From: Candidatus Omnitrophota bacterium
GTDB lineage: Bacteria > Omnitrophota > Gorgyraeia > Zapsychrales > JANLHA01
NCBI GenBank assembly: GCA_020632535.1
Contig: JACKFJ010000001.1
Span: forward strand, 90,890 to 154,889
Length of the DNA: 64,000 nucleotides
Reading direction: 5' to 3'
The notes beneath the pieces were generated by a model. The model searched no databases, was not told the origin of the DNA, and saw nothing but the letters and a program-made list of their open reading frames with translations. The position numbers and the translations under genes were made by a program. Below, piece after piece: positions 1,716 to 57,048 of this stretch (position 1 is its first letter; every line of letters starts with the position of its first letter).

Positions 1716-2690
1716 ATGGTAACGCTTAATTTATTAAAAAATCGAATTCGTAATATTGTTGGCCATCCACAATTGTCGCGGTGGATGTTTAAGGATACAG
1801 TTAGCCTTTTTGTTTATCACGATGTATCCGATGAGACAAGCTTATTTTGTCAGGCGCATGCCTTGAATGTCACTCCTTCGCAATTTGTTGAGCAGATGAA
1901 ATTTATAAGTGATCATTTTCATATGATCGATCCGGATGTTTTGTTAAAAGGTGATTTTCCAACACCGGCGGCTTTAGTCACATTTGATGATGGGATGTCG
2001 GGATATTTTAAAAATGCCGTGCCAATTATGGAAAAAATGAAAATTCCTTCACTGCTATTTTTAAATATGGCGCCAATTGAAGGAAAACTTTTTTGGTCGG
2101 GTTTGGTGACATATTTGACGGCTCATGACCCGAATTTTGTTAAATTTGTACAGGAAAGAAAGGGTGATCAATCTCATTTGCCTGCATTTCTACTGTGTGA
2201 TCCCCAAATGGTTACGGATTATGTTTCAGCGCATGGTGCAAGCGATTTGGAGGCGAGAGTACGGGCATATTATGGAGAGTTTGGGACAATTCGTGACCTT
2301 GAACAAGCCGCCAAAAATCCCTTTGTGTTTTATGGGAATCATTTATACAATCATTACAATGCCGCTTGGTTAACGGATGATGAATTACGGGAGCAATATT
2401 ATCAAAATCAAAAATCGATTGATCAGTTTTCCTGTGGGCGCAAACTTTTTGCGTATCCTTTTGGACAGCCGGGGAGTTGTTTTACGGTAAATCAAACACA
2501 AATTCTTAAGGATTGCGGGGCAGAGGCGGTGTTTTTTTCGGGTGGGGGAACAAATAAAGTCAATAAAAAGCAAGTTGTGTTTGATCGTGTTGGGGTTGAT
2601 CCCTACGTTAAGACCATTAATGATTTGAATAGTCGTCTGCAGGCTGGGAGTTTGCGCGCGGCACTACGAACATTTAAAAAGACTATATGA
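1716..2690 (+). CDS. Polysaccharide deacetylase family protein (NodB/CE4-like)
   Basis: 324-aa ORF starting 3 nt after the upstream stop. It has a NodB-type motif LVTFDDGMSGY and the downstream stretch FYGNHLYNHYN. Confidence 0.7.
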   Translation: MVTLNLLKNRIRNIVGHPQLSRWMFKDTVSLFVYHDVSDETSLFCQAHALNVTPSQFVEQMKFISDHFHMIDPDVLLKGDFPTPAALVTFDDGMSGYFKNAVPIMEKMKIPSLLFLNMAPIEGKLFWSGLVTYLTAHDPNFVKFVQERKGDQSHLPAFLLCDPQMVTDYVSAHGASDLEARVRAYYGEFGTIRDLEQAAKNPFVFYGNHLYNHYNAAWLTDDELREQYYQNQKSIDQFSCGRKLFAYPFGQPGSCFTVNQTQILKDCGAEAVFFSGGGTNKVNKKQVVFDRVGVDPYVKTINDLNSRLQAGSLRAALRTFKKTI

Positions 2691-3733
2691 AAAAAATTCT
2701 TAAATGCGGCATTGTTGGATATGGATATATGGGCGAAATTCGCCGAGCTGTGATTGAGCGCCATCCTGAATCCATGCAGCTTGTTGGAGTTTGCGATACT
2801 AATGAAGCCATTCGTGCCAAAATTGGCGGGGTAAGGACTTTTAGCAAACTCGAAGATTTATTAGCTACGAAAATTGACATCCTTTTTGTCTGCACACCTA
2901 ATTGTTTTTCTCCGGAAATTTGCATGACCGCCATGGACTTAGGCATTCATGTTTTTTGTGAAAAGCCCCCTGGCCGTGATGTCGACGATATTAAGAATAT
3001 TATCAGCCACGAAAAAAGTGGAACGAAGTTGATGTTTGGTTTTAATCATCGTTTTCATCCGGGTATTGTCAAAGCGAAAGTCATTATTGATAGTGGGAGA
3101 TTTGGACGCATTCTTAATTTGCGCGGGCTTTATGGCAAATCCGGCGGCATGCAATTTAAAAAATCGTGGCGTAATAATCGCGAGATTTCCGGCGGTGGTA
3201 TACTTTTGGATCAGGGCATTCATATGTTGGATTTGTTTTCGCATTTTTGTGGTGATTTTGAACAAGTTAAATGTTTTACGAATGATGATTTTTGGAAGTT
3301 TGCCGTTGAGGATAATGCTTTTGTTATCCTGCAGAATAAAAAAGGTCAGAGCGCGTCATGTCATTCTTCCGCCACATTTTGGAAGCACACATTTCGTCTT
3401 GATATTACGTTAGAAGAGGGGTACATGACTGTTGAAGGACTTTTGTCAAAGTCAGGCAGTTATGGACGGGAAAAGTTGATTGTTGCCAGCCGACAATTTG
3501 AAGACGCGGCCCATGCTGTTGGGAATCCATCGGAAGAAGTTACTTATTTTGACCGCGATCTTTCGTGGGATTTGGAAGTTGAAGAATTTGTTCGCTGCGT
3601 CAGCGACGATAAGCCAGTTACTACGAGTTCTTCTCAGGATGCTTTACGTGTTATGGAAATCATACAAAGGGCTTATGATGATGCTTTAAAAGCTAAACAA
3701 TCTAGCCAAGACCTGCACAAAACGAAACACTAA
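2687..3733 (+). CDS. Gfo/Idh/MocA family NAD(P)-dependent sugar oxidoreductase
   Basis: ATGA overlap with the upstream gene. N-terminal Rossmann stretch KCGIVGYGYMG, EKPP motif (FCEKPPGR), then GFNHRFHP. Confidence 0.85.
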   Translation: MKKILKCGIVGYGYMGEIRRAVIERHPESMQLVGVCDTNEAIRAKIGGVRTFSKLEDLLATKIDILFVCTPNCFSPEICMTAMDLGIHVFCEKPPGRDVDDIKNIISHEKSGTKLMFGFNHRFHPGIVKAKVIIDSGRFGRILNLRGLYGKSGGMQFKKSWRNNREISGGGILLDQGIHMLDLFSHFCGDFEQVKCFTNDDFWKFAVEDNAFVILQNKKGQSASCHSSATFWKHTFRLDITLEEGYMTVEGLLSKSGSYGREKLIVASRQFEDAAHAVGNPSEEVTYFDRDLSWDLEVEEFVRCVSDDKPVTTSSSQDALRVMEIIQRAYDDALKAKQSSQDLHKTKH

Positions 3734-3742
3734 TTACGGCCC

Positions 3743-4756
3743 ATGAAAAATATTGTTATTTCTGATGAATATAACCAAGTTGATTTAAAGCCTTCTGAGT
3801 TGGTTAAGCGTTATATTGCTTTAACGCAGGAGGATGTGCGTTATCTTTTGGCGTCAGCGAAATTAAGTCTTTGTAATTGTCCGGCTTGCGGTGCTAAAGA
3901 GCGCAAAACGTCTTTTGTGAAATTTTCTCTGACATACCAAGAATGTGGTCAATGCCACACTTTGTACGTTTCTCCTCGCCCGGATGATAAGACATTAAAT
4001 GATTATTATCTAAAGAGTGCCGCGCGGACATTTTGGCGTGATGAACTTTCTAAGGCTACCGATCGAAAGCGTAAGGAAAAGATTATTAAGCCTCGTTTTC
4101 AATGGATTTTGGAGTCGACAGGTGAATATTTTAAGACCGCGCAAACATGGGTTGATGTTAATACCGGTCAGTATAGTTACATTGACGCGATGGCGGATGC
4201 GAATATTTTTGCGAACAAAATCATTCTTAATCCGTATTTAAAAATTCAGCAAGGTGATTATCAGCGCGTTACGATTATACAAAAACCGTGGTGGGAGTAT
4301 TCTGTTCAAAATAAGGCTGATGTGATTTCGCTTTTTGAAGTTGCTGATCATACGTCGGATGTCGGCGGGTTGATGAAATTTGCAAATCACGTGTTAACAG
4401 ATGGCGGATTATGTTTTTTGACCACAATTTTGTCGTCGGGTTTTGATTTACAGGTTCTGTGGGATCAGGCTGATAATTTGTATCCGCCGGATCGTTTGAA
4501 CTGTTTTTCGATCAAAGGATTAAAAAGTCTTTTTGAAAAGCATGGTTTTGAATGTTTGGAATTTAGCACGCCCGGTATTCTTGACGTTGAAATCGTCGCG
4601 AAAGCTATGCAAGCGAATCCGGCATTAGATGTGCCGCGTTTTGTGCGTGATCTGATTGAAAACGGCGATGAAGAAGCCAAACGCAGTTTTCAGGAATTCT
4701 TACAAAGCGCGTGCATGAGTTCATATGGCCGGATATTGTTAAGAAAAAAATTTTAA
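3743..4756 (+). CDS. Putative SAM-dependent methyltransferase with N-terminal Cys4 zinc ribbon
   Basis: CNCPACG...CGQCH zinc-ribbon pattern. The C-terminal half reads like the class I MTase post-motif-I region (ADVISLFEVADHTSDVGGLMKFANHVLTDGGLCFLT). The glycine-rich motif I is degenerate. Confidence 0.5.
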   Translation: MKNIVISDEYNQVDLKPSELVKRYIALTQEDVRYLLASAKLSLCNCPACGAKERKTSFVKFSLTYQECGQCHTLYVSPRPDDKTLNDYYLKSAARTFWRDELSKATDRKRKEKIIKPRFQWILESTGEYFKTAQTWVDVNTGQYSYIDAMADANIFANKIILNPYLKIQQGDYQRVTIIQKPWWEYSVQNKADVISLFEVADHTSDVGGLMKFANHVLTDGGLCFLTTILSSGFDLQVLWDQADNLYPPDRLNCFSIKGLKSLFEKHGFECLEFSTPGILDVEIVAKAMQANPALDVPRFVRDLIENGDEEAKRSFQEFLQSACMSSYGRILLRKKF

Positions 4757-4789: not shown

Positions 4790-5395
4790 ATGTCGTATAT
4801 AAACGATTACTGTCGTGAAGCAGGTCAAATAATCGCATCATTAGATCAGGGTCAAATCGAGAAAATGATTGAGATTCTATTGGATGTGCGTAAAGTTGGC
4901 GGCCGGATTTTTTTCCTCGGTGTTGGGGGTAGCGCCGCGAATTGCTCACATGCGGTTAATGATTTTCGTAAAATTGGCGGTTTTGAAGCGTATACACCTG
5001 TGGATAATGTCGCGGAATTAACCGCACGAACGAATGATGAAGGTTGGAATACCGTTTTTGAAGGCTGGCTCAAAGGTTCGCGGATTAATTCGAAAGACGT
5101 GGTGTTTGTTTTTTCTGTGGGTGGTGGCAGTAAGGAAAAGAATATCAGCGCGAATTTGGTTTATGGACTTGATGTTGCAAAAAGCGTAGGTGCAAGAATT
5201 TTGGGTGTTGTCGGACGCGACGGTGGATATACCGCGCAAGTAGCTGACGCGTGCGTGGTCATCCCACCACTGAATCCAGCGACAATTACGCCGCAATCCG
5301 AAAGTTTTCAGGCGGTGGTTTGGCACATGATCGTTTCTGATCCTCGCATTATGACAATGTCAAACAAGTGGGAGTCAGTCTCGGTAATTTCGTAA
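4790..5395 (+). CDS. SIS-domain sugar-phosphate isomerase (GmhA/phosphoheptose isomerase-like, no CBS domains)
   Basis: Track ORF starts at GTG 4775. ATG 4790 is preferred because GGGAG (4777-4781) lies 8 nt upstream. SIS signature IFFLGVGGSAANCSHAVNDF and VFSVGGGS. Confidence 0.75.
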   Translation: MSYINDYCREAGQIIASLDQGQIEKMIEILLDVRKVGGRIFFLGVGGSAANCSHAVNDFRKIGGFEAYTPVDNVAELTARTNDEGWNTVFEGWLKGSRINSKDVVFVFSVGGGSKEKNISANLVYGLDVAKSVGARILGVVGRDGGYTAQVADACVVIPPLNPATITPQSESFQAVVWHMIVSDPRIMTMSNKWESVSVIS

Positions 5396-5461
5396 ATTAA
5401 AATCACGTAGTCCCGATAGTTTTACTATTGCGGGACAAGTGGGAGTCAGTCTCGGTAATTT
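5364..5461. repeat. 27-bp perfect direct repeat (5364-5390 and 5435-5461) flanking a 44-bp insert with a bulged hairpin (5410-5436)
   Basis: ACAAGTGGGAGTCAGTCTCGGTAATTT occurs twice. Copy 1 is the 3' end of the SIS gene. Both copies continue with a similar stop-codon context (tcgTAA / tagTGA). The hairpin gtcccgatagt-ttt-actatTGcgggac resembles one arm of repeat family B. Confidence 0.8.
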
Positions 5462-5509
5462 AGTGAAACAAGATCACGCAGATTATTTATCAATAACATA
5501 GGAGTTCGA

Positions 5510-6190
5510 ATGGCAATTTTTCTCGACACGAGCAATATTACTGAAATCCGAAAATATAATAAGATGGGCATTGTTTTTGGTGTGACCACGAATCCGACTA
5601 TCCTTCACAAAGAGGGCATCAAGGGTGGCATGGGTGGATTGAAAGCCGCGATTCAAGAAGTCACACAATTGCTTGCTCCACATCCTGTTTCAGTCGAGGT
5701 TACAACGAATGATCCTAAGGAAATGCTTAAACAAGCTAAGGAAATGGCTGGGTGGGGTGATAATATTGTTGTCAAGATCACTGTGCATGGGCCGAAAGGT
5801 GAGCTTGATAATATGGAGATTATTCATGAATTGGAAACAAAGCACAATATTCGTGTCAATGTCACGGCGATGATGAGCGCGCAGCAATGTTTTTTGGCCG
5901 CGTTGGCTGGTGCAAGCTATGTGTCGATTCTCTCGGGGCGTGTTAATAATATGGGGTATAACTCCATTGAAGAAATTAAAAAACTTCGTTTTCTTTTAGA
6001 TCGTTATCAATTAAAGAGCAAAATCATTGCGGCTTCCACACGGGAAATTTTAAATGTCACGGAATGGCTTTGTGCTGGCGCAGACATTGTTACGGTCGCT
6101 CCAAATTTTATTGAAGGGATGCTCGTTCATCCTTATACAAAAGAAACTGTGCAGATGTTTTTGAATGATGCGGCAAAAGCGGGACATTGA
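5510..6190 (+). CDS. Transaldolase-family class I aldolase (fructose-6-phosphate aldolase / TalC-like, short form)
   Basis: RBS AGGAG at 5500-5504. MAIFLDTSNITEI...GVTTNPTIL, NIVVKIT (Schiff-base Lys context), NVTAMMSAQQCFLAALAGASYVS. The 226-aa size matches Fsa/type-3B transaldolases. Confidence 0.85.
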   Translation: MAIFLDTSNITEIRKYNKMGIVFGVTTNPTILHKEGIKGGMGGLKAAIQEVTQLLAPHPVSVEVTTNDPKEMLKQAKEMAGWGDNIVVKITVHGPKGELDNMEIIHELETKHNIRVNVTAMMSAQQCFLAALAGASYVSILSGRVNNMGYNSIEEIKKLRFLLDRYQLKSKIIAASTREILNVTEWLCAGADIVTVAPNFIEGMLVHPYTKETVQMFLNDAAKAGH

Positions 6191-6197
6191 TATTTAC

Positions 6198-6299
6198 CAT
6201 TGCGAGGAACGAAGTGACGAAGCAATCCATAGTAGATTGCCGCGTCGTTCCTGCGGAACTCCTCGCAATGATAACAGCGCCCTTCGGGCTCGCAATGGG
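6198..6299. repeat. Palindromic repeat family A, copy 1 (composite, with two right ends)
   Basis: CATTGCGAGGA (6198-6208) is the reverse complement of TCCTCGCAATG (6260-6270). An inner stem pairs GCAATC with GATTGC. A second right end, gcgcccttcgggCTCGCAATGgg, lies at 6277-6299. It shares 28 identical bases with the copy at 61109. Confidence 0.85.
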
Positions 6300-6333
6300 A
6301 TAAAAAAGGATACGCTAAAGGGATTTTTGTTAA

Positions 6334-7116
6334 ATGAACAATTTTCTTAAAACAAGACAATTGCTAAAGAAGAAGTTGCAGAATCGGGAAAAGATTTTTG
6401 GTTCATGGACGTCGTTGGCGCATCCGTCGATTACCGAAATTTTTACTCGTTCGGGAGTTGATTTTGTCGGCATTGATCTTGAGCATAGCACGATTAGTCA
6501 GGAACAGTCTCAACGTATCATTGCCACGGCGCAAGCCGGTGGTGTCGTGTGTTTGCCGCGCATTTCATCGCACAATCCCGAAATGGTTCGTCGTCTTTTA
6601 GATTCGGGGGCTGACGGGATGATTGTGCCGATGGTGCAAAATGCTGAGGATGTTAAAAAAATGATTGCTTGGGCTAAATATCCGCCGCTTGGTCGTCGTG
6701 GTTTTGGTGTTTCGCGCGCGCAAGGGTATGGCATGGATTTTACGGAGTACACCAAGACGTGGAATGCAAGTTCGATTATGATTGCCCAGATTGAATCGAT
6801 TGGCGCCGTGGAACGTATCGAAGAAATATTAGCTTTTAAGGAGTTAGATGGCGTGATGGTTGGGCCGTATGACATTTCCGGATCACTTGGCATCCCGGGA
6901 CAGATAGAGCATAAAAGTGTATTAGAAGCAGGTAAGCGTGTCATTGCGGCGTGCAAACGATATGGAAAAGCATGCGGGACACAAATTGTTGAGCCTAATG
7001 AACAGCGAATTAAGAAAGCGTTGGCTGCTGGTTTTACCTTTGTCATTTTGTCGTCAGATGTTTTCCTTTTATGGAAATGGGCGGATCAGATGAAAAGTTT
7101 AATCGCTCATAAATAA
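6334..7116 (+). CDS. HpcH/HpaI-family class II (pyruvate-dependent) aldolase
   Basis: FGSWTSLAHPSITEIFTRSGVDFVGIDLEHS, MVPMVQNAEDV, PLGRRGFG, AQIESIGAV, VGPYDISGSLG. This pattern is typical of 2-keto-3-deoxy-acid aldolases. Confidence 0.8.
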   Translation: MNNFLKTRQLLKKKLQNREKIFGSWTSLAHPSITEIFTRSGVDFVGIDLEHSTISQEQSQRIIATAQAGGVVCLPRISSHNPEMVRRLLDSGADGMIVPMVQNAEDVKKMIAWAKYPPLGRRGFGVSRAQGYGMDFTEYTKTWNASSIMIAQIESIGAVERIEEILAFKELDGVMVGPYDISGSLGIPGQIEHKSVLEAGKRVIAACKRYGKACGTQIVEPNEQRIKKALAAGFTFVILSSDVFLLWKWADQMKSLIAHK

Positions 7117-7119
7117 GAT

Positions 7120-7773
7120 ATGGCAAAATATCAAGCTGTGATTCTTGATTTCGATGGCGTGATTGTTGAGTCTGTTGGGATAAAAGACAATGCTTTTAAG
7201 GAACTGTTTAAGGATTTTCCCCAGCAACTTGGAAGCATTATGCAGTATCATCGCGCGAACAATGCCACAATCCGGTATGAAAAATTTAGATTTATTTATG
7301 AGGAAATTCTTGGTATCCCTTATACGTCTGACATTTCAGAATATTTGAACGCGCAGTTTTCTAAGATGATATTTGAGAAAATCGTGCTATGTCCTTTTGT
7401 AAATGGCGCGCAGGAATTTCTGGAGCATTTTGGCAGTCAATCCTTGTTGTATCTGGTTTCGGTAAATCCACTTGAAGAATTAAAGTCCATCCTTCGAGAA
7501 AGAAAGCTTAGTCAATTTTTTACAGAAGTGTATGCTCATCCGTGGGGCAAGGCGGACGCGATTCGTGATATTTTGCGTCGCAATGATTTTGCGGAAAGAG
7601 AAGCTGTGTTTGTTGGTGACAGCCCCGAGGATTATGAAGCTGCAAGCATGGCAGGAATTGATTTTGTGGGAAGACAGGCGAGCCGTTTGTGGGAGGGGAA
7701 GAATTGTGTGGTTCTAAATGATATGCGTGAAGTTTTAAATTATTTAAAAATCCAAGCGCAAGCAGTTCGTTAA
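7120..7773 (+). CDS. HAD-superfamily phosphatase (subfamily IA-like)
   Basis: Motif I VILDFDGVIVES, motif III K in GKADA, motif IV FVGDSPEDYEAA. It starts 3 nt after the upstream stop. Confidence 0.75.
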   Translation: MAKYQAVILDFDGVIVESVGIKDNAFKELFKDFPQQLGSIMQYHRANNATIRYEKFRFIYEEILGIPYTSDISEYLNAQFSKMIFEKIVLCPFVNGAQEFLEHFGSQSLLYLVSVNPLEELKSILRERKLSQFFTEVYAHPWGKADAIRDILRRNDFAEREAVFVGDSPEDYEAASMAGIDFVGRQASRLWEGKNCVVLNDMREVLNYLKIQAQAVR

Positions 7774-7791
7774 AAATACAATACAAAAATT

Positions 7792-8571
7792 ATGTCCGAT
7801 TACTTACAAAAAACTTTTAACTTAACAGGCAAAACTGCTGTAGTTATTGGTGGGGCGGGTTTTCTTTGTAGTGAAATGGCAATTGGTTTAGCCAATGCGG
7901 GCGTGAATATCGCTGTTCTCGACAAGAACGAAGAAAAACTTAAACCCATTATTGAGAAAATAAAAGTCCTTGGGGTTAAAGCGTGTGGAATTTCGTTGGA
8001 TGTTACAAAAAAAGAAAATCTGTTGGCTGCGAAAGATGATGTTTTAAAAAGATTTGGTAGTGTCGATATTCTGATTAATGGCGCTGGAGTCAACGCTCCG
8101 ACGCCATTTTTTGATATTAAGGTTGAGGAATGGCAAGCTATTTTGGATTCGCATATTACCGCGACATTTTTAGCGTGTCAGGTTTTTGGTGAGGAGATGG
8201 TTAAAAGCAAAAGTGGTTCTATTATCAATATGTCATCAGCTTCTGCCGGGCCGCCTTTGTCGAAGGCATTTACCTATTCGATAGCAAAGGCTGGAATTCG
8301 CAATTTGACACAGAATTTAGGGCGTGAGTGGGCTAAGTCCAATGTGCGTGTCAATTGTCTTCGCCCGGGATTCTTTCCGACGGAGTGGAGTAAAAAACAT
8401 TTTATTGATGAAGCACGCAATGCCGCGATTTTAAATCATACGCCGATGGGGCGTTATGGCAAACCTGAGGAATTGGTTGGCGCGGTTTTATGGCTTTCGT
8501 CCGACGCGGCAACATTTGTCACCGGCGCGGAAATTACCATCGACGGCGGTTTTACATGTATGACAATTTAG
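7792..8571 (+). CDS. Short-chain dehydrogenase/reductase (SDR)
   Basis: TGKTAVVIGGAGFLC cofactor motif, NGAG, and catalytic S...YSIAK (YxxxK). Confidence 0.85.
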   Translation: MSDYLQKTFNLTGKTAVVIGGAGFLCSEMAIGLANAGVNIAVLDKNEEKLKPIIEKIKVLGVKACGISLDVTKKENLLAAKDDVLKRFGSVDILINGAGVNAPTPFFDIKVEEWQAILDSHITATFLACQVFGEEMVKSKSGSIINMSSASAGPPLSKAFTYSIAKAGIRNLTQNLGREWAKSNVRVNCLRPGFFPTEWSKKHFIDEARNAAILNHTPMGRYGKPEELVGAVLWLSSDAATFVTGAEITIDGGFTCMTI

Positions 8572-8573
8572 AC

Positions 8574-8608
8574 AGATTGCTTCGGCGCCCTGTGGGCTCC
8601 TCTCAATG
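8574..8608. repeat. Repeat family A, right-half fragment
   Basis: agattgcttcggcgccctgtgggctcctctcaatga aligns with the right arm of copy 1 (agattgccgcgtcgttcctgcggaactcctcgcaatga). Confidence 0.55.
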
Positions 8609-8618
8609 AAAGTAAAGT

Positions 8619-9377
8619 ATGAAAACAAAATTAAAAACAGTCATTATTACGGGTGGGACTAGAGGTATCGGTGCCGAAATTGCCAAAGTTTTTCACCGTG
8701 CTGGCATGTGCGTCATTATCGGTAGTCGTAATGATAGTGGTTTGGCCGATGAGCTTGATGAGCGCGTACGTTTTGTAAAAATGGATGTTCGTCGGGAAAG
8801 CGATCATAAGAAATTGATTTCCGCGGCCTTACAGTGGACTGGGCAAGTGGACGTATATATCAATTGCGCGGGGTTTTCTGCTTGGAAGCCGGTAGGTGAA
8901 GTTACGGAAAAGTTTTGGAATGATATGCTTGATACCAATTTGAAAGGTGTTTTTTGGGGTTGTAAAGCGGCCTCCGCAATTTTACCCAAGGGTGGCGTGA
9001 TAATTAATATTTCTAGTTTGGCCGGCAAACGCGGGAGCAGTAATAATTCAGTTTATTGCGCGTCTAAATTTGGTGTGACAGGTTTGACGCAAGCGCTCGC
9101 CAAGGAATTAGGAGCTCGTGGTATTCGCGTTGTGGGCGTTTGCCCTGTCTATGTAGAAACGCCCGGCGTTGTCCAAGCATTACAGGATAAGAATTCCCCG
9201 ACAAAGGGTAAGAATGTGAAAGCGTATTTACAAAAGTTTACAGCCGAACAAACGGCTTTGGGTGTTTTACCGACAGGTAAAAATATTGGTGAAACCTGTT
9301 TGTTCTTGGCATCTTCAGCTGCCGCGGCGATCACCGGCCAATCTTTGAATGTGGATTGTGGGGTTATGCCGCAATGA
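8619..9377 (+). CDS. Short-chain dehydrogenase/reductase (3-oxoacyl-ACP-reductase-like SDR)
   Basis: ITGGTRGIG, NCAG, S...YCASK (YxxxK), and C-terminal ITGQSLNVDCG. Confidence 0.85.
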   Translation: MKTKLKTVIITGGTRGIGAEIAKVFHRAGMCVIIGSRNDSGLADELDERVRFVKMDVRRESDHKKLISAALQWTGQVDVYINCAGFSAWKPVGEVTEKFWNDMLDTNLKGVFWGCKAASAILPKGGVIINISSLAGKRGSSNNSVYCASKFGVTGLTQALAKELGARGIRVVGVCPVYVETPGVVQALQDKNSPTKGKNVKAYLQKFTAEQTALGVLPTGKNIGETCLFLASSAAAAITGQSLNVDCGVMPQ

Positions 9378-10135
9378 AAGTGGTCGCTGTTATTCCTGCA
9401 CGCATGGGTTCGTCACGATTTCCAGGTAAACCATTAAAAAAAATTTTAGATCTTCCATTAGTCGAGCATGTTCGTCGTCGTGCGCTTTTGTGTAAAACGG
9501 TTAATGATGTTGTCGTCGCGACATGTGATCAGGAAATTATGGATGCTGTTGAGGATGCTGGTGGCAAAGCGGTAATGACGTCGGATAAACATGAGCGCTG
9601 TACGGATCGGGTTGAAGAAGCGGTTCGTGAAAGTGACGCGGATATTGTCATAGTTTTACAGGGTGATGAGCCTTTATTAGGTATCGATGTGATCGATAAG
9701 CTCATTGCACCGTTTGTGGAAAATAGGGATGTGTTGTGTACGAATTTGCTTTCAATTATTAATGATGAAGCAGATTTGGATGACCGCGATATTGTCAAGG
9801 CAGTTATAAATCAAAAGAATAATGTTTTATGCTTTTCTCGCGCGGGGATTCCGTACCGTCGATCCAAGATTGATTGCCCGTTGTATCGTCAAACCGGATT
9901 TTCTGCTTTTCGCAAATCATTTTTAGATCAATTTTCTCAGTTGACACCAACTCCTTTAGAAATTTCTGAATCAGTCGATTTTATGCGAATTTTGGAACAT
10001 GGCTTTCCAATTTGTGGTGTGATTTATGAGCAAACCACGATTGGTGTCGATCGCCCAGATGATGTTGGCATTGTTGAAAACATTTTGCTTAAAGATCCTC
10101 AACAGAAAAAAATTTACGAAATGATTTCTCAATGA
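9374..10135 (+). CDS. KdsB-family cytidylyltransferase (CMP-ulosonic-acid synthetase-like)
   Basis: ATG 9374 overlaps the SDR stop (ATGA). MKVVAVIPARMGSSRFPGKPL...VVVATCDQEI...GGKAVMTSDKHERCTDR...LQGDEPLL aligns by eye along the whole length of CMP-Kdo synthetase. Confidence 0.8.
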   Translation: MKVVAVIPARMGSSRFPGKPLKKILDLPLVEHVRRRALLCKTVNDVVVATCDQEIMDAVEDAGGKAVMTSDKHERCTDRVEEAVRESDADIVIVLQGDEPLLGIDVIDKLIAPFVENRDVLCTNLLSIINDEADLDDRDIVKAVINQKNNVLCFSRAGIPYRRSKIDCPLYRQTGFSAFRKSFLDQFSQLTPTPLEISESVDFMRILEHGFPICGVIYEQTTIGVDRPDDVGIVENILLKDPQQKKIYEMISQ

Positions 10136-11061
10136 GTGCTAAAATTCTTGTTGCTTTGTCCACATTTGCGCAATACGGTCAAGAGCCGCTTGACCTTTTG
10201 AAGAAAAGTGGATTGTCTTACACAATCAATCCTGTTTCTCGACGTTTATCAGCGGAAGACATTTTGAAATTTGCTCAGGATTGTTCCGGTATTGTCGCTG
10301 GTGTCGAGCCTTATACGAGCGAAGTTTTAAGTAGGTTGCCGCAATTAAAGTGCATTAGTCGTTGTGGTGTCGGTATCGATAATATTGATCAGAGTAAAGC
10401 TAAATCTTTGGGTATCAAAGTGCTTAACACTCCTGACCCGGTTATTGTGCCTGTTGCGGAATTAACGATTGGAATGATGTTGGATTTATTACGACATATC
10501 ACGTGGCACACAGTTTCTTTGCGTAAGTCGCAATGGCAGAAAAAGGGGGGGCGCAACCTTCGAGGACAAACGGTCGGGATTATCGGTTTAGGTCGTATCG
10601 GCAAAAAGGTCGCAGAATTTTTAAACCATTTTGGTGCTAATGTGATTGCCACGGATTTGAACCCAGACCAGTTGTGGGCACAGGAGAATCATGTTGCCAT
10701 CGTTTCAATCGAAGAAATATTGACGAATGCGGATATTGTGACACTTCATCTTTCAACGAATCAGAATGCTCCATTTTTTCTTGGCGAAAAAGAAATTCGT
10801 CGTATGAAGGCGGGTGCAATATTATTGAATCTTTCTCGGGGTGAGCTTATAGATGAGCAAGCTCTTTTCGACGCGCTCAAAGAGGAGCGTTTAGGCGGTG
10901 TTGGCATTGATGTTTTTCCACAAGAACCGTATTTGGGGAAATTAACTTCACTTGATAATGTTATTATGACGCCGCACGTGGCGACTTTGACGAGAGAGTC
11001 ACGATTACAAATGGAAACACAGGCTGTCCAAAATCTTTTGCAATCATTAAGTAAGGAATAA
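10132..11061 (+). CDS. D-isomer-specific 2-hydroxyacid dehydrogenase (PGDH/GyaR-like)
   Basis: ATGA overlap. GQTVGIIGLGRIGKKVA NAD motif, LSRGELID, and MTPHVA with the catalytic His. Confidence 0.85.
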   Translation: MSAKILVALSTFAQYGQEPLDLLKKSGLSYTINPVSRRLSAEDILKFAQDCSGIVAGVEPYTSEVLSRLPQLKCISRCGVGIDNIDQSKAKSLGIKVLNTPDPVIVPVAELTIGMMLDLLRHITWHTVSLRKSQWQKKGGRNLRGQTVGIIGLGRIGKKVAEFLNHFGANVIATDLNPDQLWAQENHVAIVSIEEILTNADIVTLHLSTNQNAPFFLGEKEIRRMKAGAILLNLSRGELIDEQALFDALKEERLGGVGIDVFPQEPYLGKLTSLDNVIMTPHVATLTRESRLQMETQAVQNLLQSLSKE

Positions 11062-11774
11062 TGGTATCTCAAATGGCACTTGTAGAATTAAAACAGAAGT
11101 TGCATCCATTTGAACTCATCATGGGTTTACATGGTTTGTTGCGTTGGCCGGCGATGACGCGTAAAGAAATGCGTATTCTCAAACGGGTTTTTTTGTCATT
11201 TCCCAAAAATCAAACTATCAATATTTTTGAATATGGCATGGGTTTTTCAACGCTTTATTTTGCGAAGTTTTTGCAGAACATGGGTAGGTCTTTTCATATT
11301 GATTCATTGGATAATAATCGTTTTTGGTATGAAAAAGTCACAGCCATGATTCGAAATGAAAAATTAAGTGATTCTGTTACTTTGCATTTACGTGAGTTTG
11401 CTCCTTTTTGGGAAAAGTCAGGCTGGAATTGGCAAGCACCGCAGATGCATGGCACATTTGCGCCGAGTATGCCGGAAGAAAATGAATACATTGTTTTACC
11501 TCAGACATTGCATAAACATTACAATGTCATTTTTGTCGATGCCCGTTTTCGTCGTCGCTGTTTGGAGACGGCGCTTCAAGCTGTTGATCATCGTGGTATT
11601 GTCATCTTGCATGACGCGCAAAAGAAACAATATCAATCTTCAACGGAGCTTTATCGACATTCTCGATTTATCGACAGTGGTAAGTATTTTCCATTTGCTC
11701 GCAAGCAATATCAGATCTGGTTAGGAAGCCCGACCAATACTTTGGTTGAAGAAATTGCACGGGAGTTTGCCTAA
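11061..11774 (+). CDS. Hypothetical protein, possible Rossmann-fold methyltransferase-like
   Basis: TAATG overlap with the upstream stop. IFEYGMGFSTLYFA and VIFVDARFRRRC...GIVILHD resemble class I MTase motifs I and post-III. The assignment is weak. Confidence 0.35.
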   Translation: MVSQMALVELKQKLHPFELIMGLHGLLRWPAMTRKEMRILKRVFLSFPKNQTINIFEYGMGFSTLYFAKFLQNMGRSFHIDSLDNNRFWYEKVTAMIRNEKLSDSVTLHLREFAPFWEKSGWNWQAPQMHGTFAPSMPEENEYIVLPQTLHKHYNVIFVDARFRRRCLETALQAVDHRGIVILHDAQKKQYQSSTELYRHSRFIDSGKYFPFARKQYQIWLGSPTNTLVEEIAREFA

Positions 11775-11775
11775 T

Positions 11776-12909
11776 ATGAGAACACCCACAATTACAGTGC
11801 TGATGACGGTTTATAATGGCGACAAATATCTTAAAGACGCTATTGAAAGCATATTGAAGCAAACTTATACGGATTTTGAATTCTTAATTATCAATGATTG
11901 TAGTCGTGATCATTCCGAAGAAACGATTAAATCTTTTTCGGATAAACGCATACGGTTAGTGAATAATGAAACAAATTTGGGTCAAACCCGATCATTGAAT
12001 AAGGGTTTAGGTCTCGCCCGCGGGCGTTACATTGCGCGAATTGATGCGGATGATCTTGCTTTTCCGGCGTGGTTATCTAAGAATCTTACGGCATTGCAGG
12101 CCAATTCGCAAACAGCGGTCGTTAGTTGTAAAGCCGTTGTGATTGACGCAACGAATAAAATTCAGAAGGTTCTAAATACTCCGTGTGATTATGATGATAT
12201 GGTATTGCGTTCTTTATTGGCGACACCGCTTAATCATGTTGGATCGGTTTATAAGACGGATGTGATTGCGTCTTTGGGTGGTTACGACGAGCGCTTTCGC
12301 ATTGCGGCAGATTTTGAACTGTGGTCAAAATTAATACGAAATAATATTCATTTGTCTTCAACGGATGAACCGCTCGTCGCGATTCGTGTGCATGATCATT
12401 CGATCAGTATCAGCGAGCGCGGAAGAACAGATATTGGCGAGATTTCCGAGATTATGGCCCGAAATTTTAGGAGTCTCGTCGCATTTTCAGTTACGGATGA
12501 CGACATTCACCGTTTGTGGAAACTCAACTACGCAACGGCACAATTAAGCAGTGAAGAATTTTATGGCAGTTTAAGCTTATTGCAACGGGCTTATCGGTCG
12601 TTGAACTCTAAGTATGAGATTTCATTGTCGAAAATCAATGCTTTTGCTATTCAACAGAAGCGAGTCCTTTATGCCAAACGTGCTTTTAGTGAAATTCATG
12701 AAGGTCATAGCGAGCAATTACGGGTTTTAGCGGCACAGTATCGTCAAAGTGAAGGCTGGTTGAATATGTTTTCGATATTGTGGCTGGGATCATGGCTGGG
12801 CAAACCATTTCTGAAACAATTGCCGTGGGTTTATCAACGCTGGAGTGGTTGGTCCACGCGAAAAAAACTGCAACAACAGGATTGTTCTGAATTATGTCTA
12901 AGAAAATAA
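11776..12909 (+). CDS. Glycosyltransferase family 2
   Basis: ATG 11776 lies 1 nt after the upstream stop; the track start at 11746 would overlap it. ITVLMTVYNGDKYLKDAIESILKQTYTDFEFLIINDCSRD, and ARIDADD (DxD). Confidence 0.8.
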   Translation: MRTPTITVLMTVYNGDKYLKDAIESILKQTYTDFEFLIINDCSRDHSEETIKSFSDKRIRLVNNETNLGQTRSLNKGLGLARGRYIARIDADDLAFPAWLSKNLTALQANSQTAVVSCKAVVIDATNKIQKVLNTPCDYDDMVLRSLLATPLNHVGSVYKTDVIASLGGYDERFRIAADFELWSKLIRNNIHLSSTDEPLVAIRVHDHSISISERGRTDIGEISEIMARNFRSLVAFSVTDDDIHRLWKLNYATAQLSSEEFYGSLSLLQRAYRSLNSKYEISLSKINAFAIQQKRVLYAKRAFSEIHEGHSEQLRVLAAQYRQSEGWLNMFSILWLGSWLGKPFLKQLPWVYQRWSGWSTRKKLQQQDCSELCLRK

Positions 12910-17785: not shown

Positions 17786-18202
17786 ATGAAAGACAAGAAA
17801 TCATATCCTCTTGTCCACGCTTCCAAATCCGACCATTCGGAGTCTGTGGATTTTCTTGTCGACATGGCCATTGAATTCTGGCGTTTAGAAAAACGTCTTA
17901 GTAAAATCAAATCTTCCTTAAGTAATGTTGACGCGCAGGATTTTGGTGATCAAATGCAGCGTATGACGGCGGTGTTTGAAAAACATCAAATCGAGATTCA
18001 CGACCCTAAAGGGGAAATTTATATTGATGGACGCGCGTTAAAAGCAATTTATATTGAAGAAGTTGCAAGCCTTCCTGTCGGTGAATGCCGCGTTATTGAA
18101 ACTATCAAGCCTTCCGTTTGTCGTAAAGGTGTTCAGATTTTTCAGGGTGAAGTCATTGTTGGTCAGGGTCCATCCCAAAAGTCAATAAAGGCTAAATTAT
18201 GA
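17786..18202 (+). CDS. Small GrpE-like protein (putative nucleotide-exchange factor, truncated form)
   Basis: 138 aa, and its stop overlaps the Hsp70 start (ATGA). FEKHQIEIHDPKGEIYIDGRALKAIYIEE...VIETIKPSVCRKGVQIFQGEVIV aligns by eye with the GrpE C-terminal beta domain (GVEVI..G..FDP..H.A.....V.EV.QKGY...R.A.V.V). The long N-terminal helix is missing. Confidence 0.4.
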   Translation: MKDKKSYPLVHASKSDHSESVDFLVDMAIEFWRLEKRLSKIKSSLSNVDAQDFGDQMQRMTAVFEKHQIEIHDPKGEIYIDGRALKAIYIEEVASLPVGECRVIETIKPSVCRKGVQIFQGEVIVGQGPSQKSIKAKL

Positions 18203-20703: not shown

Positions 20704-20708
20704 TCATA

Positions 20709-20788
20709 CTGTCATTCCCGCAATCTCTTAGCGGGAATCCAAGATTTTGGAGAATGGATCCCCGATAGGAGCTTTCGGGGATGACAAT
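20709..20788. repeat. Palindromic repeat family B, copy 1
   Basis: Termini TGTCAT...ATGACA enclose two hairpins, ATTCCCGC-n9-GCGGGAAT and ATCCCCG-n13-CGGGGAT. It matches the copies at 43019-43131 (same orientation) and 43918-43986 (inverted). Confidence 0.85.
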
Positions 20789-20856
20789 AATTCGTGAAGA
20801 TAGGATCGCCAAAATCGCCCGAGACATAATATCATTCTGCCTAAGTGAAATATTTT

Positions 20857-32908: not shown

Positions 32909-32930
32909 CATTAACCAAAGGACAAAATCT

Positions 32931-36362
<3,432 letters not shown>

Positions 36363-57047: not shown

Positions 57048-57048
57048 A

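Follow-up and report, generated by a model that had tools for sequence, protein, structure and literature searches.

Aldolase–cytidylyltransferase cassette recurring in polysaccharide loci and its proposed role in building a CMP-activated 2-ulosonic acid sugar

Introduction

The 64,000-nucleotide stretch of Candidatus Omnitrophota DNA analysed here (the window) surrounds a gene cassette with a Wzy-type polysaccharide locus, and the cassette encodes a KdsB-family cytidylyltransferase with no PEP-dependent synthase of the KdsA or NeuB type beside it. The question is therefore how the sugar acid to be activated would be assembled. A preliminary description proposed condensation of pyruvate by an HpcH/HpaI-type aldolase. 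From the sequence comparisons below, we consider it fairly probable that the cassette is a self-contained unit for biosynthesis of a CMP-activated 2-ulosonic (keto-acid) sugar of a surface polysaccharide, the skeleton of which would be built by the aldolase.

Organization of the locus

The eight plus-strand genes at 4790–11061, originally listed as one unit, are all present as open reading frames with the domains ascribed to them (Table 1). Their order also stands, whereas their description as mostly overlapping does not; only the SDR2/cytidylyltransferase and cytidylyltransferase/dehydrogenase junctions are overlaps (4 nt each), and the other five are gaps of 3, 18, 47, 114, and 143 nt. The dehydrogenase gene further overlaps the following methyltransferase gene by 1 nt. 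The reading frame of the SIS isomerase opens at GTG 4775, with ATG 4790 being the likely start, and that of the cytidylyltransferase runs from 9356, with its ATG at 9374 overlapping the stop codon of SDR2. The unit proved larger than eight genes, comprising at least ten, as the GFO/IDH/MocA oxidoreductase and methyltransferase genes at 2687–4756 belong to the core; the former had been omitted from the earlier list of upstream genes, in which the deacetylase and methyltransferases were correctly noted.

Table 1. Genes of the cassette and its flanks, with positions in the window
Predicted product	Position	Strand	Domains and remarks
O-carbamoyltransferase (NodU/CmcH type), accessory tailoring	13..1713	+	Pfam Carbam_trans_N and Carbam_trans_C; 5' end cut by window edge
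Polysaccharide deacetylase-like, accessory, lineage-specific	1716..2690	+	Pfam Polysacc_deac_1, 44 bits
GFO/IDH/MocA sugar oxidoreductase (GFO), conserved core	2687..3733	+	Pfam GFO_IDH_MocA and its C-terminal domains
SAM methyltransferase (MT), conserved core	3743..4756	+	Pfam Methyltransf_23; N-terminal extension of ~180 aa
GmhA-like single-domain SIS sugar-phosphate isomerase (SIS)	4790..5395	+	Pfam SIS_2 only, without CBS domain
TalC-type transaldolase (TAL)	5510..6190	+	Pfam TAL_FSA; not fructose-6-phosphate aldolase
HpcH/HpaI class II (metal-dependent) 2-oxoacid aldolase (HpcH)	6334..7116	+	Pfam HpcH_HpaI
HAD-IA phosphatase (capped, phosphoglycolate-phosphatase-like; HAD)	7120..7773	+	Pfam HAD_2 and Hydrolase
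Classical SDR 1, closest to sugar-acid dehydrogenases	7792..8571	+	Pfam adh_short
Classical SDR 2	8619..9377	+	Pfam adh_short
KdsB-family CTP:ulosonate cytidylyltransferase (CTP)	9374..10135	+	Pfam CTP_transf_3
Short D-2-hydroxyacid dehydrogenase (2HADH), phosphoglycerate-dehydrogenase (PGDH)-like	10132..11061	+	Pfam 2-Hacid_dh and 2-Hacid_dh_C
Methyltransferase, accessory	11061..11774	+	Pfam Methyltransf_24; conserved in Omnitrophota-type cassettes
GT2 glycosyltransferase	11746..12909	+	Pfam Glycos_transf_2

The reported absence of a KdsA- or NeuB-type synthase from the window was upheld. Neither DAHP_synth_1 nor NeuB (Pfam) matched any of the scanned ORFs (every listed one of at least 150 aa, minus two opposite-strand ORFs inside annotated genes), and a bona fide KdsA used as BLAST query found no match in the window.

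Recurrence of the cassette

When the eight-gene block was sought in other genomes, the order GFO–MT–SIS–TAL–HpcH–HAD–SDR–SDR–CTP–2HADH was found to be kept in about 80 species genomes of many phyla, including Omnitrophota (the source of the window), Chloroflexi, Deltaproteobacteria, Kiloniella (the isolate Kiloniella laminariae), Halopseudomonas (a MAG assigned to Halopseudomonas aestusnigri), and one archaeal contig. Because the identical order recurs across dozens of unrelated genomes, the arrangement is far beyond chance. No published description of the cassette was found; it is conserved, widely spread, and undescribed.

Among 52 well-flanked loci anchored on the HpcH aldolase, the GFO gene occurs in 47, each time directly upstream of the methyltransferase gene. 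The genes for the cytidylyltransferase (43), HAD phosphatase (42), 2HADH (41), and the core methyltransferase and SDR1 (40 each) come next in frequency. The core methyltransferase stays paired with GFO even in rearranged cassettes (L102, L103, and L105), and SDR2 adjoins SDR1 in every case, both being missing together from some cassettes. In metagenomes, a reverse search from the cytidylyltransferase yielded 15 well-flanked loci, 12 of them with an adjoining HpcH aldolase (23 of 28 when shorter flanks were allowed) and 13 with an adjoining 2HADH, the most frequent neighbour. Because this reverse search also leads to the aldolase and the dehydrogenase, the aldolase and cytidylyltransferase constitute the true core, their tight linkage being seen in both of two independent scans of the collections. 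HpcH was undetected in three of the 15 cytidylyltransferase-anchored loci; three clusters in which HpcH was not detected were examined (L118, L144, and L136, the latter two among the 15), and a PF04199 'cyclase' is present in L118 and L144. A minimal version on a plasmid of a cultured Acuticoccus sp. consists of five genes (aldolase, cytidylyltransferase, PGDH-like dehydrogenase, HAD phosphatase, and an oxidoreductase), without SIS and TAL.

Sugar-acid degradation typically involves HpcH aldolases, KduD-like SDRs, GFO oxidoreductases, and 2-hydroxyacid dehydrogenases, and a catabolic operon lying beside polysaccharide genes by coincidence was considered. However, the linkage with the cytidylyltransferase, methyltransferases, and a GT-B transferase (see below) is obligate, the cassette is embedded in glycan loci in every case, and no catabolic-type transporter, kinase, or regulator accompanies it, making a catabolic function highly improbable.

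Aldolase and cytidylyltransferase

Alignment of the HpcH/HpaI protein with YfaU and HpaI places E50/H51, R76, E154, and D180 at the positions of their catalytic His and Arg and metal-binding Glu and Asp, and 125 cassette aldolases show 100% conservation of this set; positions 216–217 are occupied by family-specific polar residues. The score falls well short of the NCBIfam equivalog cut-offs for HpaI, GarL, and RhmA, and, as judged from these cut-offs and residues, no characterised clade contains the enzyme, which has more than 2,400 homologues, many 60–70% identical across phyla. HpcH-family enzymes are known to use pyruvate or hydroxypyruvate as donors in condensations with polyhydroxy aldehydes (PMC7610986), and we propose the aldolase as the C–C bond-forming enzyme of the pathway.

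The cytidylyltransferase falls within the NCBIfam KdsB subfamily PRK13368 (270.5 bits; cut-off, 255) and narrowly misses the kdsB equivalog (154.1 versus a cut-off of 155.2, about 1 bit), a near-miss that leaves Kdo as a possible substrate. Among solved structures, that of E. coli KpsU (1GQ9) is the best match. The cassette enzymes retain the KdsB residues for CTP and Mg, but KdsB-invariant residues are replaced in all of them, including H to Q, Y to S, and E–Q to D–F in the C-terminal part. The C-terminal domain of KdsB is the Kdo-binding domain (PMC3149649), and these replacements indicate a sugar-binding domain systematically altered in comparison with KdsB. In a neighbour-joining tree without support values, containing only five reference KdsB sequences, the cassette enzymes form a clade apart from these five solved KdsB/CMP-Kdo synthetases. 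With the cytidylyltransferases lying outside the solved KdsB enzymes and the aldolase outside characterised clades, neither of the two outcomes named in the preliminary description as contrary to it, i.e., an aldolase clade of established, unrelated function or a grouping with bona fide CMP-Kdo synthetases alongside a canonical kdsA elsewhere, was therefore found.

A genuine KdsA (329 bits; cut-off, 242) is nevertheless encoded in one operon with HpcH–SDR–SDR–CTP in four flavobacterial variants (L048, L057, L059, and L070), which are without SIS, TAL, HAD, and 2HADH. There, condensation may not fall to the aldolase, or not to it alone. These variants favour an alternative in which ordinary Kdo (or Kdo 8-phosphate) is supplied by a canonical KdsA encoded elsewhere, leaving to the cassette only its modification and CMP activation; the HpcH aldolase would then, for example, epimerise C4 by reversible retro-aldol/aldol reactions or make a side-chain building block. 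The KdsB-family score of the cytidylyltransferase, so close to the equivalog cut-off, would agree with such a supply; Omnitrophota, presumably diderm, might also have a kdsA of their own. On the other side, KdsA is limited to those four related loci of about 160, and the transaldolase, isomerase, and phosphatase would be left without a role. The replacement of residues invariant in KdsB, in several cases within the Kdo-binding part, and the separate clade also speak against it. Moreover, the full cassette occurs on a contig also encoding topoisomerase VI A, an archaeal marker, and in MAGs with monoderm or CPR labels (Chloroflexi, Uhrbacteria, and Gram-positive), hosts where kdsA or the Kdo pathway is not expected, although taxonomic labels of MAGs can be wrong. 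Altogether, we regard a KdsA-supplied substrate as unlikely.

Enzymes acting before and beside the condensation

The PDB matches of the SIS protein were all phosphoheptose isomerases, with low scores. At four GmhA positions (H, E, Q, H), which we take to be metal or catalytic ligands, it carries H, D, E, H, a set without variation among 66 family members, and in place of the GmhA loop STSxxS, presumably phosphate-binding, it has SVG..S together with an insertion. The neighbouring protein had been called an Fsa/transaldolase-type class I aldolase; the TAL_FSA domain is there, but the Fsa part was rejected, since its catalytic residues are those of a true transaldolase and position 132 is Phe (46 members) or Leu (16, including that of the window) and never the Tyr of FSA. 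Its closest structure is Thermoplasma acidophilum transaldolase (3S0C), and the conservation of D6, N28, E60, K86, T110, R135, S167, and R169 across 62 members points to intact catalytic and phosphate-binding residues.

The HAD phosphatase gave weak NCBIfam matches to YjjG and phosphoglycolate phosphatase and no PDB sequence match below 1e-5; a KdsC-type enzyme was rejected, the Pfam domains being HAD_2/Hydrolase versus Hydrolase_3 of the KdsC type. SDR1 best matches D-mannonate oxidoreductase (261 bits), gluconate 5-dehydrogenase, and KduD in NCBIfam, and 2HADH best matches Pyrococcus horikoshii PGDH (1WWK; 182 bits), then human PHGDH, in the PDB. The domains of the redox enzymes and phosphatase, formerly assigned to tailoring and dephosphorylation of the product, are real, but no tailoring task is apparent for 2HADH on a sugar required to keep its 2-keto group, and together with the small-substrate-type HAD it could instead supply hydroxypyruvate.

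Taken most literally, the preliminary description implies a KdsA-independent route to genuine CMP-Kdo, in which the SIS protein is an arabinose-5-phosphate isomerase, the aldolase joins arabinose 5-phosphate and pyruvate, and the HAD phosphatase replaces KdsC. SIS, aldolase, HAD, and cytidylyltransferase indeed parallel KdsD, KdsA, KdsC, and KdsB one-to-one. Against this, the SIS protein matches phosphoheptose isomerases only, not KdsD/KpsF, and is without CBS domains, the HAD is not of KdsC type, the cytidylyltransferase departs from KdsB at several invariant positions of its presumed sugar pocket, and the conserved transaldolase, GFO, two SDRs, PGDH-like enzyme, and methyltransferases are unaccounted for. 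We judge genuine CMP-Kdo a very improbable product.

The product might also be a short (C5 to C7) keto acid or ulosaric acid instead of a long-chain sugar, e.g., a 3-deoxy-heptulosaric (Dha-like) or 2-keto-hexonic acid made from hydroxypyruvate or pyruvate and a C2–C4 aldehyde, for instance one derived from erythrose 4-phosphate, which the transaldolase would supply. Characterised HpcH-family enzymes use C2–C4 aldehydes, the minimal five-gene module dispenses with SIS and TAL, SDR1 resembles KduD and mannonate dehydrogenases acting on C6 acids, and, besides the possible formation of hydroxypyruvate by the PGDH-like enzyme and HAD, PdxB-type chemistry on 4-phosphoerythronate is also within the family of the dehydrogenase. 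To our knowledge, however, KdsB-family enzymes act only on C8–C9 pyranosidic ulosonic acids; several methyltransferase genes and the carbamoyltransferase suggest many free hydroxyls, and the conserved pairing of a GmhA-like isomerase with a transaldolase speaks for a ketose phosphate with seven or more carbons. A short acid is accordingly an unlikely product.

Tailoring genes and candidate transferase

The O-carbamoyltransferase is 92% identical to a gene product (622 aa) on another Omnitrophota contig (L001) and otherwise occurs in few cassettes (L017, L058, L063, L073, and L087), as does the deacetylase-like gene (L001, L021, L045, and L049). The Methyltransf_24 gene follows 2HADH in L001, L006–L011, L019, L023, L024, and others. 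Transfer of the sugar had been assigned to the downstream GT2, a possible candidate whose co-occurrence is limited to Omnitrophota-type cassettes. A Pfam-less protein of 500–640 aa, the gene of which lies immediately before the upstream edge of the window, accompanies the cassette over a wider range, in about 50 loci. High-confidence modelling (pLDDT, 91.6) gave it the structure of a GT-B glycosyltransferase, and it has weak sequence links to families of the nonulosonic-acid-transferase type; this predicted enzyme is the likelier transferase.

Proposed pathway and comparison with known systems

The pyruvate-aldolase route to a CMP-ulosonic acid is thus supported in outline by the linked pair, the intact aldolase, the separate cytidylyltransferase clade, and the occurrence in hosts not expected to have kdsA, with the flavobacterial KdsA as a caveat. 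In the aldolase-built pathway that we favour, the transaldolase and GmhA-like isomerase would turn sugar phosphates of central metabolism into a higher aldose phosphate, and the aldolase, standing in for PEP-dependent KdsA or NeuB synthases, would join a three-carbon 2-oxoacid to the aldehyde, giving a 2-keto-acid sugar skeleton. The donor would be pyruvate, or hydroxypyruvate derived from 3-phosphoglycerate by the PGDH-like dehydrogenase and HAD phosphatase, the latter dephosphorylating either the condensation product or phosphohydroxypyruvate. The two SDRs and GFO may then adjust stereochemistry or oxidation state before the KdsB-like enzyme makes the CMP-sugar. Aldol condensation of pyruvate is thermodynamically weaker than PEP-driven synthesis; the use of CTP would pull the reversible aldol step forward. 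The product may be anything from C8 to C11, with C3 either deoxy or hydroxylated, and would be decorated by the methyltransferases and carbamoyltransferase and transferred by the dedicated GT-B glycosyltransferase.

For the first steps there is a precedent in lincomycin biosynthesis, where the transaldolase LmbR and the isomerase LmbN lead to octose 8-phosphate (PMC5854111). The transaldolase and GmhA-like isomerase of the cassette resemble this octose-phosphate-building pair and may build the higher sugar phosphate in the same manner.

Gene content of the glycan locus

The window reads as a single long glycan locus on the plus strand, with the closest match to the Omnitrophota metagenome contig L001, in which the proteins of this block are 79-98% identical and encoded in the same order. 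The eight genes that the preliminary description had placed at 4790-11061 are all present with the domains it had named, whereas its statement that they are mostly overlapping was too strong, because overlaps occur at two of the seven internal junctions, whereas 3 to 143 nt separate the genes at the remaining ones. The reported absence of a KdsA- or NeuB-type synthase from the window was confirmed in two ways: neither a DAHP_synth_1 (KdsA) nor a NeuB domain was found in the scanned window ORFs, and a BLAST search with a genuine KdsA as the query gave no match within the window. No Rfam family matched the window, and terminator-like sites in the block did not exceed the shuffled expectation.

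Features of the window locus and of related loci, with the number of well-flanked loci carrying each cassette gene
Feature	Contig or locus	Position	Strand	Assignment	Loci with gene
Carbamoyltransferase (truncated by window edge)	window, 5' of block
Deacetylase-like protein	window, 5' of block
GFO/IDH/MocA oxidoreductase (GFO)	window, 5' of block				47/52
Methyltransferase	window, 5' of block				40/52
SIS_2 isomerase (SIS)	window	4790-5395	+	Pfam	43/52
TAL_FSA protein (transaldolase)	window	5510-6190	+	Pfam	37/52
HpcH/HpaI aldolase	window	6334-7116	+	Pfam
HAD_2 phosphatase (HAD)	window	7120-7773	+	Pfam	42/52
Classical SDR 1	window	7792-8571	+		40/52
Classical SDR 2	window	8619-9377	+		38/52
CTP_transf_3 cytidylyltransferase	window	9374-10135	+		43/52
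D-2-hydroxyacid dehydrogenase	window	10132-11061	+		41/52
Second methyltransferase, GT2, RmlB/RmlA/RmlD-like genes	window, 3' of block
GT4, WecG/TagA-type transferase, phosphoglycosyl transferase, two Wzy_C proteins, GDP-mannose dehydratase	window, elsewhere in locus
GT-B candidate	L001	1639-3483
GT-B candidate	L052	3321-5138
GT-B candidate	L057	13105-14598
Flavobacterial KdsA	L057	6405-7298
Flavobacterial KdsA	L048	8685-9578
Flavobacterial KdsA	L059	1458-2351
Flavobacterial KdsA	L070	8604-9497

Several other features of the window were recorded. The gene 3' of the RmlD-like gene differs from that of the otherwise syntenic L001, where a NUDIX-containing protein of 2,093 aa is encoded at this place. 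At 31586-36362, two Wzy_C (O-antigen polymerase/ligase-like) membrane proteins are arranged around a GDP-mannose 4,6-dehydratase and an epimerase/reductase, suggesting two polymers, or a polymerase and a ligase, in one locus. At 18199-21921, the gene for a Ser/Thr protein kinase comes after that of a protein of 834 aa that begins with a Hsp70/actin-like ATPase domain; a kinase-domain protein of 1,749 aa is encoded further along, and the genes at 18199-21921 and 36495-41744 lie on the same strand within the polysaccharide locus. Three ORFs of 724, 554, and 328 aa (15606-17780 and 26005-28652) have no Pfam match. On the minus strand, three tandem paralogues of 648, 661, and 642 aa (55110-60967) all have a C-terminal Peptidase_S74 domain ('chaperone of endosialidase'), to which two of them add ice-binding-like β-roll repeats; such an arrangement is typical of the tail fibres or spikes of phages or of self-cleaving surface fibres and is found here within an Omnitrophota chromosome segment.

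Distribution and conservation of the cassette

The search for the block in other genomes, proposed in the preliminary description, was carried out as an aldolase-alignment scan with one genome per species, which yielded 80 loci. Most of these keep the order of GFO, methyltransferase, SIS, transaldolase, HpcH, HAD, (inserts), SDR, SDR, cytidylyltransferase, and 2-hydroxyacid dehydrogenase, and the gene counts in the table were taken from the 52 loci that are flanked by 6 kb or more on both sides. The hosts are labelled as Omnitrophota, Chloroflexi, Thermodesulfobacteriota and other Deltaproteobacteria, Elusimicrobia, Aminicenantes, SAR324, Uhrbacteria, several Gram-positive groups, Magnetovibrio, and a Methanomicrobiaceae MAG, whose cassette contig also encodes the archaeal marker topoisomerase VI subunit A. 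A compact version is present in the cultured isolate Kiloniella laminariae and likewise in a MAG classified as Halopseudomonas aestusnigri, which is a cultured species.

Most of the genes inserted between HAD and the SDRs encode additional methyltransferases (FkbM and other types). In the same slot of one lineage (L004, 11436-16827; also in L005), we found a hexapeptide acyltransferase, a MaoC-dehydratase/SDR fusion, a radical SAM enzyme, an 81-aa ACP-sized protein, and an FkbH-like protein, suggesting that the sugar is acylated there with a glycerate-derived unit. L004 also carries a second HpcH-epimerase-cyclase-HAD module, with its cyclase at 2314-2982, alongside the full cassette.

A reverse scan of metagenome contigs starting from the cytidylyltransferase gave at least 600 matching stretches. 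Among the matches listed, relatives with 42-64% identity adjoin an HpcH-family aldolase in 12 of the 15 well-flanked loci (23/28 with shorter flanks) and a 2-hydroxyacid dehydrogenase in 13 of the 15. The more distant versions are reduced to an aldolase, a cytidylyltransferase, a dehydrogenase resembling 3-phosphoglycerate dehydrogenase (PGDH), a HAD, and an NAD-dependent epimerase/oxidoreductase, and a plasmid of Acuticoccus sp., a cultured alphaproteobacterium, is annotated with exactly these five genes. Mobility of the plasmid or phage kind was considered and set aside, since plasmid searches gave nothing above 40% identity, with the Acuticoccus module among those matches. Because the linkage in the reverse scan and the reduced five-gene versions retain them, the aldolase, cytidylyltransferase, and dehydrogenase are the evolutionary core, and the transaldolase, isomerase, GFO, and methyltransferase are an add-on sub-block recruited more than once. 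In two loci (L102 and L103), the transaldolase is only ~30% identical and yet is paired once more with SIS.

Some clusters with a cytidylyltransferase and a 2-hydroxyacid dehydrogenase contain no detectable HpcH; these have a PF04199 'putative cyclase' (metal hydrolase) gene (L118, 9350-9985; L144, 11786-12463) and also B12-radical SAM enzymes.

Cytidylyltransferase

The cytidylyltransferase of the window fell below the equivalog cut-offs for kdsB (TIGR00466, 154.1 vs 155.2 bits; PRK05450.1-1, 169.5 vs 281), passed those of the broader subfamily models (PRK13368, 270.5 vs 255; PRK05450.1-5, 247.7 vs 193), and scored 34 bits with the PseF model. From these profiles it is assigned to the KdsB family. 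Arg10, Lys19, the QGDEP motif, and Asp225 (KpsU numbering as counted here) are retained in the window enzyme and in all 44 close cassette enzymes, with Asp225 replaced by Asn in 18 more distant ones; an Arg and a Lys of KdsB bind CTP, two aspartates bind Mg, and the C-terminal domain binds Kdo (PMC3149649). Several conserved residues of this Kdo-binding domain are not retained in the cassette enzymes. Ten positions invariant in five solved KdsB enzymes, several of them C-terminal, are replaced in every close cassette enzyme. Changes found throughout the cassette family are His to Gln in HxGIYAYR, Tyr to Ser, and Glu-Gln to Asp-Phe in LEQLR; outside the C-terminal domain, Ser-Gly is changed to Arg-Cys and Asp51 to Cys. 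A grouping with bona fide KdsB, which the preliminary description had named, in combination with a canonical kdsA elsewhere, as evidence against its proposal, was not seen: in a neighbour-joining tree built without support values, ~140 cassette enzymes group apart from the five solved KdsB and KpsU sequences used as references. It is considered highly unlikely that the cassette is an alternative route to true CMP-Kdo.

HpcH-type aldolase

The aldolase proposed to take the place of KdsA or NeuB belongs to the class II aldolase family PF03328 by both its score (114.7 bits; gathering score, 25) and its catalytic and metal-binding residues. Glu50/His51, Arg76, Glu154, and Asp180 have aligned counterparts in YfaU and HpaI, and all of these residues, among them the catalytic His51 and Arg76 and the metal-binding Glu154 and Asp180, are invariant among 125 cassette-linked aldolases. 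The fold and these residues are common to the catabolic HpaI, GarL, and RhmA/YfaU enzymes, but the cassette aldolase scores far below the equivalog cut-offs of the characterised clades (HpaI, 146 vs 369 bits; GarL, 137-139 vs 393-407; RhmA, 123 vs 441), so that membership of a clade with an established function, the other outcome held to count against the proposal, was not found for these three. Its nearest structure is an uncharacterised Desulfitobacterium protein (3QZ6). The gene context is biosynthetic, in contrast to that of the catabolic enzymes, and the view that these genes form a catabolic operon deserves almost no credence.

A further difference from the catabolic enzymes is found at residues 216-217 (window 6979-6984), in the strand following Gly215. 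Characterised enzymes have a hydrophobic pair here, Phe/Ile and then Leu/Phe, whereas the second residue is Gln or His in all 125 cytidylyltransferase-linked aldolases (Thr-Gln/His or x-His) and the first is Thr in the close ones. The polar pair may represent a signature of donor or acceptor specificity. According to a review, HpcH-family enzymes use hydroxypyruvate as well as pyruvate as donors and take polyhydroxy aldehydes as large as ribose, and also ketoses, as acceptors; the condensation of pyruvate or hydroxypyruvate with polyhydroxy aldehydes is documented for the catabolic and the promiscuous hydroxy-keto-acid aldolases, and a Phe touching C3 of the donor is important for the turnover of hydroxypyruvate (PMC7610986). 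Residues 216-217 may correspond to the site of this donor-contacting Phe in the Sphingomonas enzyme.

Other enzymes of the cassette

The TAL_FSA protein, previously described as an Fsa/transaldolase-type aldolase, has Lys86 and Glu60 conserved in 62/62 members, and position 132 is occupied by Phe (46/62) or Leu (16/62, including the window) and never by Tyr, the residue that defines fructose-6-phosphate aldolases. Having the Schiff-base Lys, Glu rather than Gln at position 60, and no Tyr at 132 (TacTal numbering), it agrees with TalC-type transaldolases, and the reading as an Fsa-type aldolase acting on free dihydroxyacetone was dropped. Arg135, Ser167, and Arg169, which we take to be phosphate-binding, are all conserved. 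Because it scores below both equivalog cut-offs (transaldolase and fructose-6-phosphate aldolase), the protein is called transaldolase-like by its predicted mechanism rather than by specificity.

The SIS protein (201-206 aa) was correctly described as GmhA-like without CBS domains: it has SIS_2 only, lacking the SIS PF01380 plus two CBS domains of KdsD/KpsF, and matches phosphoheptose isomerases only, and weakly (44 bits against the GmhA cut-off of 209), with no KdsD or KpsF match in NCBIfam or PDB. In 66 members, it has invariantly His/Asp/Glu/His where GmhA has His/Glu/Gln/His, presumably metal or catalytic ligands, and SVG..S with an insertion in place of the STSxxS loop, presumably phosphate-binding. 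These features mark it as a relative of GmhA that probably acts in a similar way without being its orthologue. The phosphatase is a capped HAD-IA enzyme with a HAD_2 match and weak matches to phosphoglycolate phosphatase and YjjG, not the C0-type HAD (Hydrolase_3) of KdsC and Kdn-9-P phosphatase, and no close characterised relative was found. An attempt to identify the acceptor through the isomerase or the HAD was abandoned for these reasons.

The dehydrogenase bears the greatest similarity to phosphoglycerate dehydrogenases of the short type: the top NCBIfam match is PGDH (223.5 bits vs the cut-off of 454), and the top PDB match is the 307-aa PGDH of P. horikoshii (182 bits), followed by glyoxylate reductases (148 bits); the Acuticoccus homologue is recorded as phosphoglycerate dehydrogenase. 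SDR1 resembles mannonate, gluconate-5, and KduD dehydrogenases, which are sugar-acid enzymes.

Proposed pathway and product

In the proposed pathway, the transaldolase and isomerase would convert central sugar phosphates to a higher aldose phosphate, as LmbR and LmbN produce octose 8-phosphate from ribose 5-phosphate in lincomycin biosynthesis (PMC5854111). The aldolase would then join a three-carbon 2-oxoacid to the aldehyde to give a 2-keto-acid sugar, the HAD would remove a phosphate, and the SDRs and GFO would set the configuration. Finally, the KdsB-like enzyme would form the CMP-sugar, and the decorating enzymes and a GT-B protein (see the following section) would complete the product.

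Two versions of this scheme differ in the roles of the HAD and the dehydrogenase. In the first, the HAD would be an analogue of KdsC and the dehydrogenase would tailor the product; in the second, the PGDH-like enzyme and the HAD would turn 3-phosphoglycerate into hydroxypyruvate as the aldol donor, so that the acid would be 3-hydroxylated (Ko-like) and no longer the 3-deoxy sugar initially expected. Several features speak for the hydroxypyruvate version: the dehydrogenase resembles PGDH, no other gene is linked so tightly to the cytidylyltransferase, the HAD is of the kind acting on small substrates, and a 2-hydroxyacid dehydrogenase would have no evident task on a sugar whose 2-keto group has to be preserved. 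Its drawback is that the phosphate of the acceptor is unaccounted for.

Several cassettes (L035, L040, L041, and others) keep the isomerase and lack the transaldolase, a hint that central metabolism can provide the ketose phosphate. Sedoheptulose 7-phosphate, leading to a C10 acid, may fit somewhat better than octulose 8-phosphate. As an alternative, a short-chain or ulosaric acid as the product is considered unlikely. It is possible, though less likely than not, that the products are acidic sugars undescribed in any organism, namely C10/C11 and/or 3-hydroxylated 2-ulosonic acids, variably O-methylated and carbamoylated, for which a class II aldolase acting anabolically would extend a transaldolase-made heptose or octose phosphate, and which numerous uncultivated bacterial phyla, together with some archaea, would expose on their surfaces. 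Such sugars would bring a third, PEP-independent enzymatic way of making compounds like sialic acid and Kdo. That they form a new class of sugar is likewise possible, short of probable.

Candidate glycosyltransferase and flavobacterial variants

A protein of 500-640 aa without a Pfam match and annotated as 'hypothetical' accompanies the cassette in ~50 loci, including its minimal flavobacterial form. In the near-identical L001, its gene lies directly upstream of that for the carbamoyltransferase, and by this synteny it falls just 5' of position 1 of the window. The protein has weak but significant matches to TIGR04326, TIGR04396, and the BFO_1060 glycosyltransferase family, of which the last is tied to nonulosonic acid transfer in Tannerella, and its AlphaFold model (pLDDT, 91.6) matches GT-B glycosyltransferases and has an extra N-terminal domain. 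For transfer of the CMP-sugar, this predicted GT-B protein appears to be a better candidate than the downstream GT2 proposed earlier, because its family tracks the cassette across phyla, whereas GT2 accompanies only Omnitrophota-type cassettes; GT2 is retained as the less likely of the two.

The main caveat comes from four flavobacterial variants (L048, L057, L059, and L070), which have a genuine KdsA (329 bits vs the cut-off of 242) in an HpcH-SDR-SDR-cytidylyltransferase operon. They lack the SIS, transaldolase, HAD, and dehydrogenase and have the GT-B protein. Either their KdsA serves another residue or lipopolysaccharide, or the role of the aldolase differs there. That the cassette tailors Kdo made by the host would agree with such operons, but KdsA is missing from the window and from ~156 of 160 related loci, and we regard this explanation as improbable. 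In these marine flavobacterial versions, the KdsA (Kdo-8-phosphate synthase) gene also adjoins those of an MBOAT acyltransferase and several unannotated proteins.

Implications

Kdo and sialic-acid-like sugars have a central place in bacterial envelopes, in immune recognition, and in interactions between phages and hosts, and to our knowledge all established routes to them rely on a PEP-dependent synthase of the KdsA or NeuB type. If the proposed pathway is correct, it would represent a new route, probably to a new sugar class, in a conserved and horizontally spread cassette. It would also account for the surface chemistry of little-known phyla, among them Omnitrophota, Aminicenantes, Elusimicrobia, and Chloroflexi, and the field of biocatalysis would gain directly from aldolases adapted in nature to making long-chain keto-acid sugars. 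The cultured carriers (Kiloniella laminariae and the plasmid module of Acuticoccus sp.) put the hypothesis within reach of culture work.

Comparison with known systems

A description of the cassette was not found in open-access papers and bioRxiv, a result that does not prove its absence because only these sources were covered. A paper on the E. coli K15 capsule was set aside, as serA there is just a map marker.

The cassette shares with the CMP-Kdo pathway (KdsD, KdsA, KdsC, and KdsB) an isomerase, the condensation of a C3 unit with a Cn unit to a 2-keto acid sugar, a phosphatase, and a KdsB-family cytidylyltransferase with conserved CTP- and Mg-binding residues. It differs in its proposed condensing enzyme, a class II HpcH aldolase, in a GmhA-like isomerase that has no CBS domains, in a phosphatase of the HAD-IA and not the KdsC type, and in a cytidylyltransferase that has an altered C-terminal domain and clusters outside the solved KdsB enzymes; six more conserved cassette enzymes have no counterpart. 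With the nonulosonic acid pathways (NeuB/PseI/LegI plus NeuA/PseF/LegF; Kdn-9-P synthase, phosphatase, and CMP-Kdn synthetase), it has in common the organization as a cassette for a CMP-activated acidic sugar in surface-glycan loci, and the GT-B candidate is weakly linked to families found with their transferases (TIGR04326, BFO_1060, and TIGR04396). In contrast to these pathways, the core of the cassette has no NeuB-type synthase, aminotransferase, N-acetyltransferase, or NDP-sugar hydrolase, and its cytidylyltransferase is KdsB-like and not NeuA-like.

Transaldolase and GmhA-like isomerase families also stand side by side in lincomycin biosynthesis, where LmbN is GmhA-like; the likeness is at the level of families, and LmbR/LmbN is the sole precedent known to us for such assembly of a higher aldose phosphate. 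The lincomycin octose is made into a GDP-sugar after kinase and phosphatase steps, whereas the cassette sugar would be extended by an aldolase and activated with CMP. Altogether, the cassette resembles the CMP-Kdo and nonulosonic acid pathways in its predicted mode of action but lies outside the KdsB orthologues and the GmhA, KdsD, KdsC, and characterised HpcH groups, and it would represent a CMP-ulosonic acid cassette with a different condensing enzyme and a different precursor supply.
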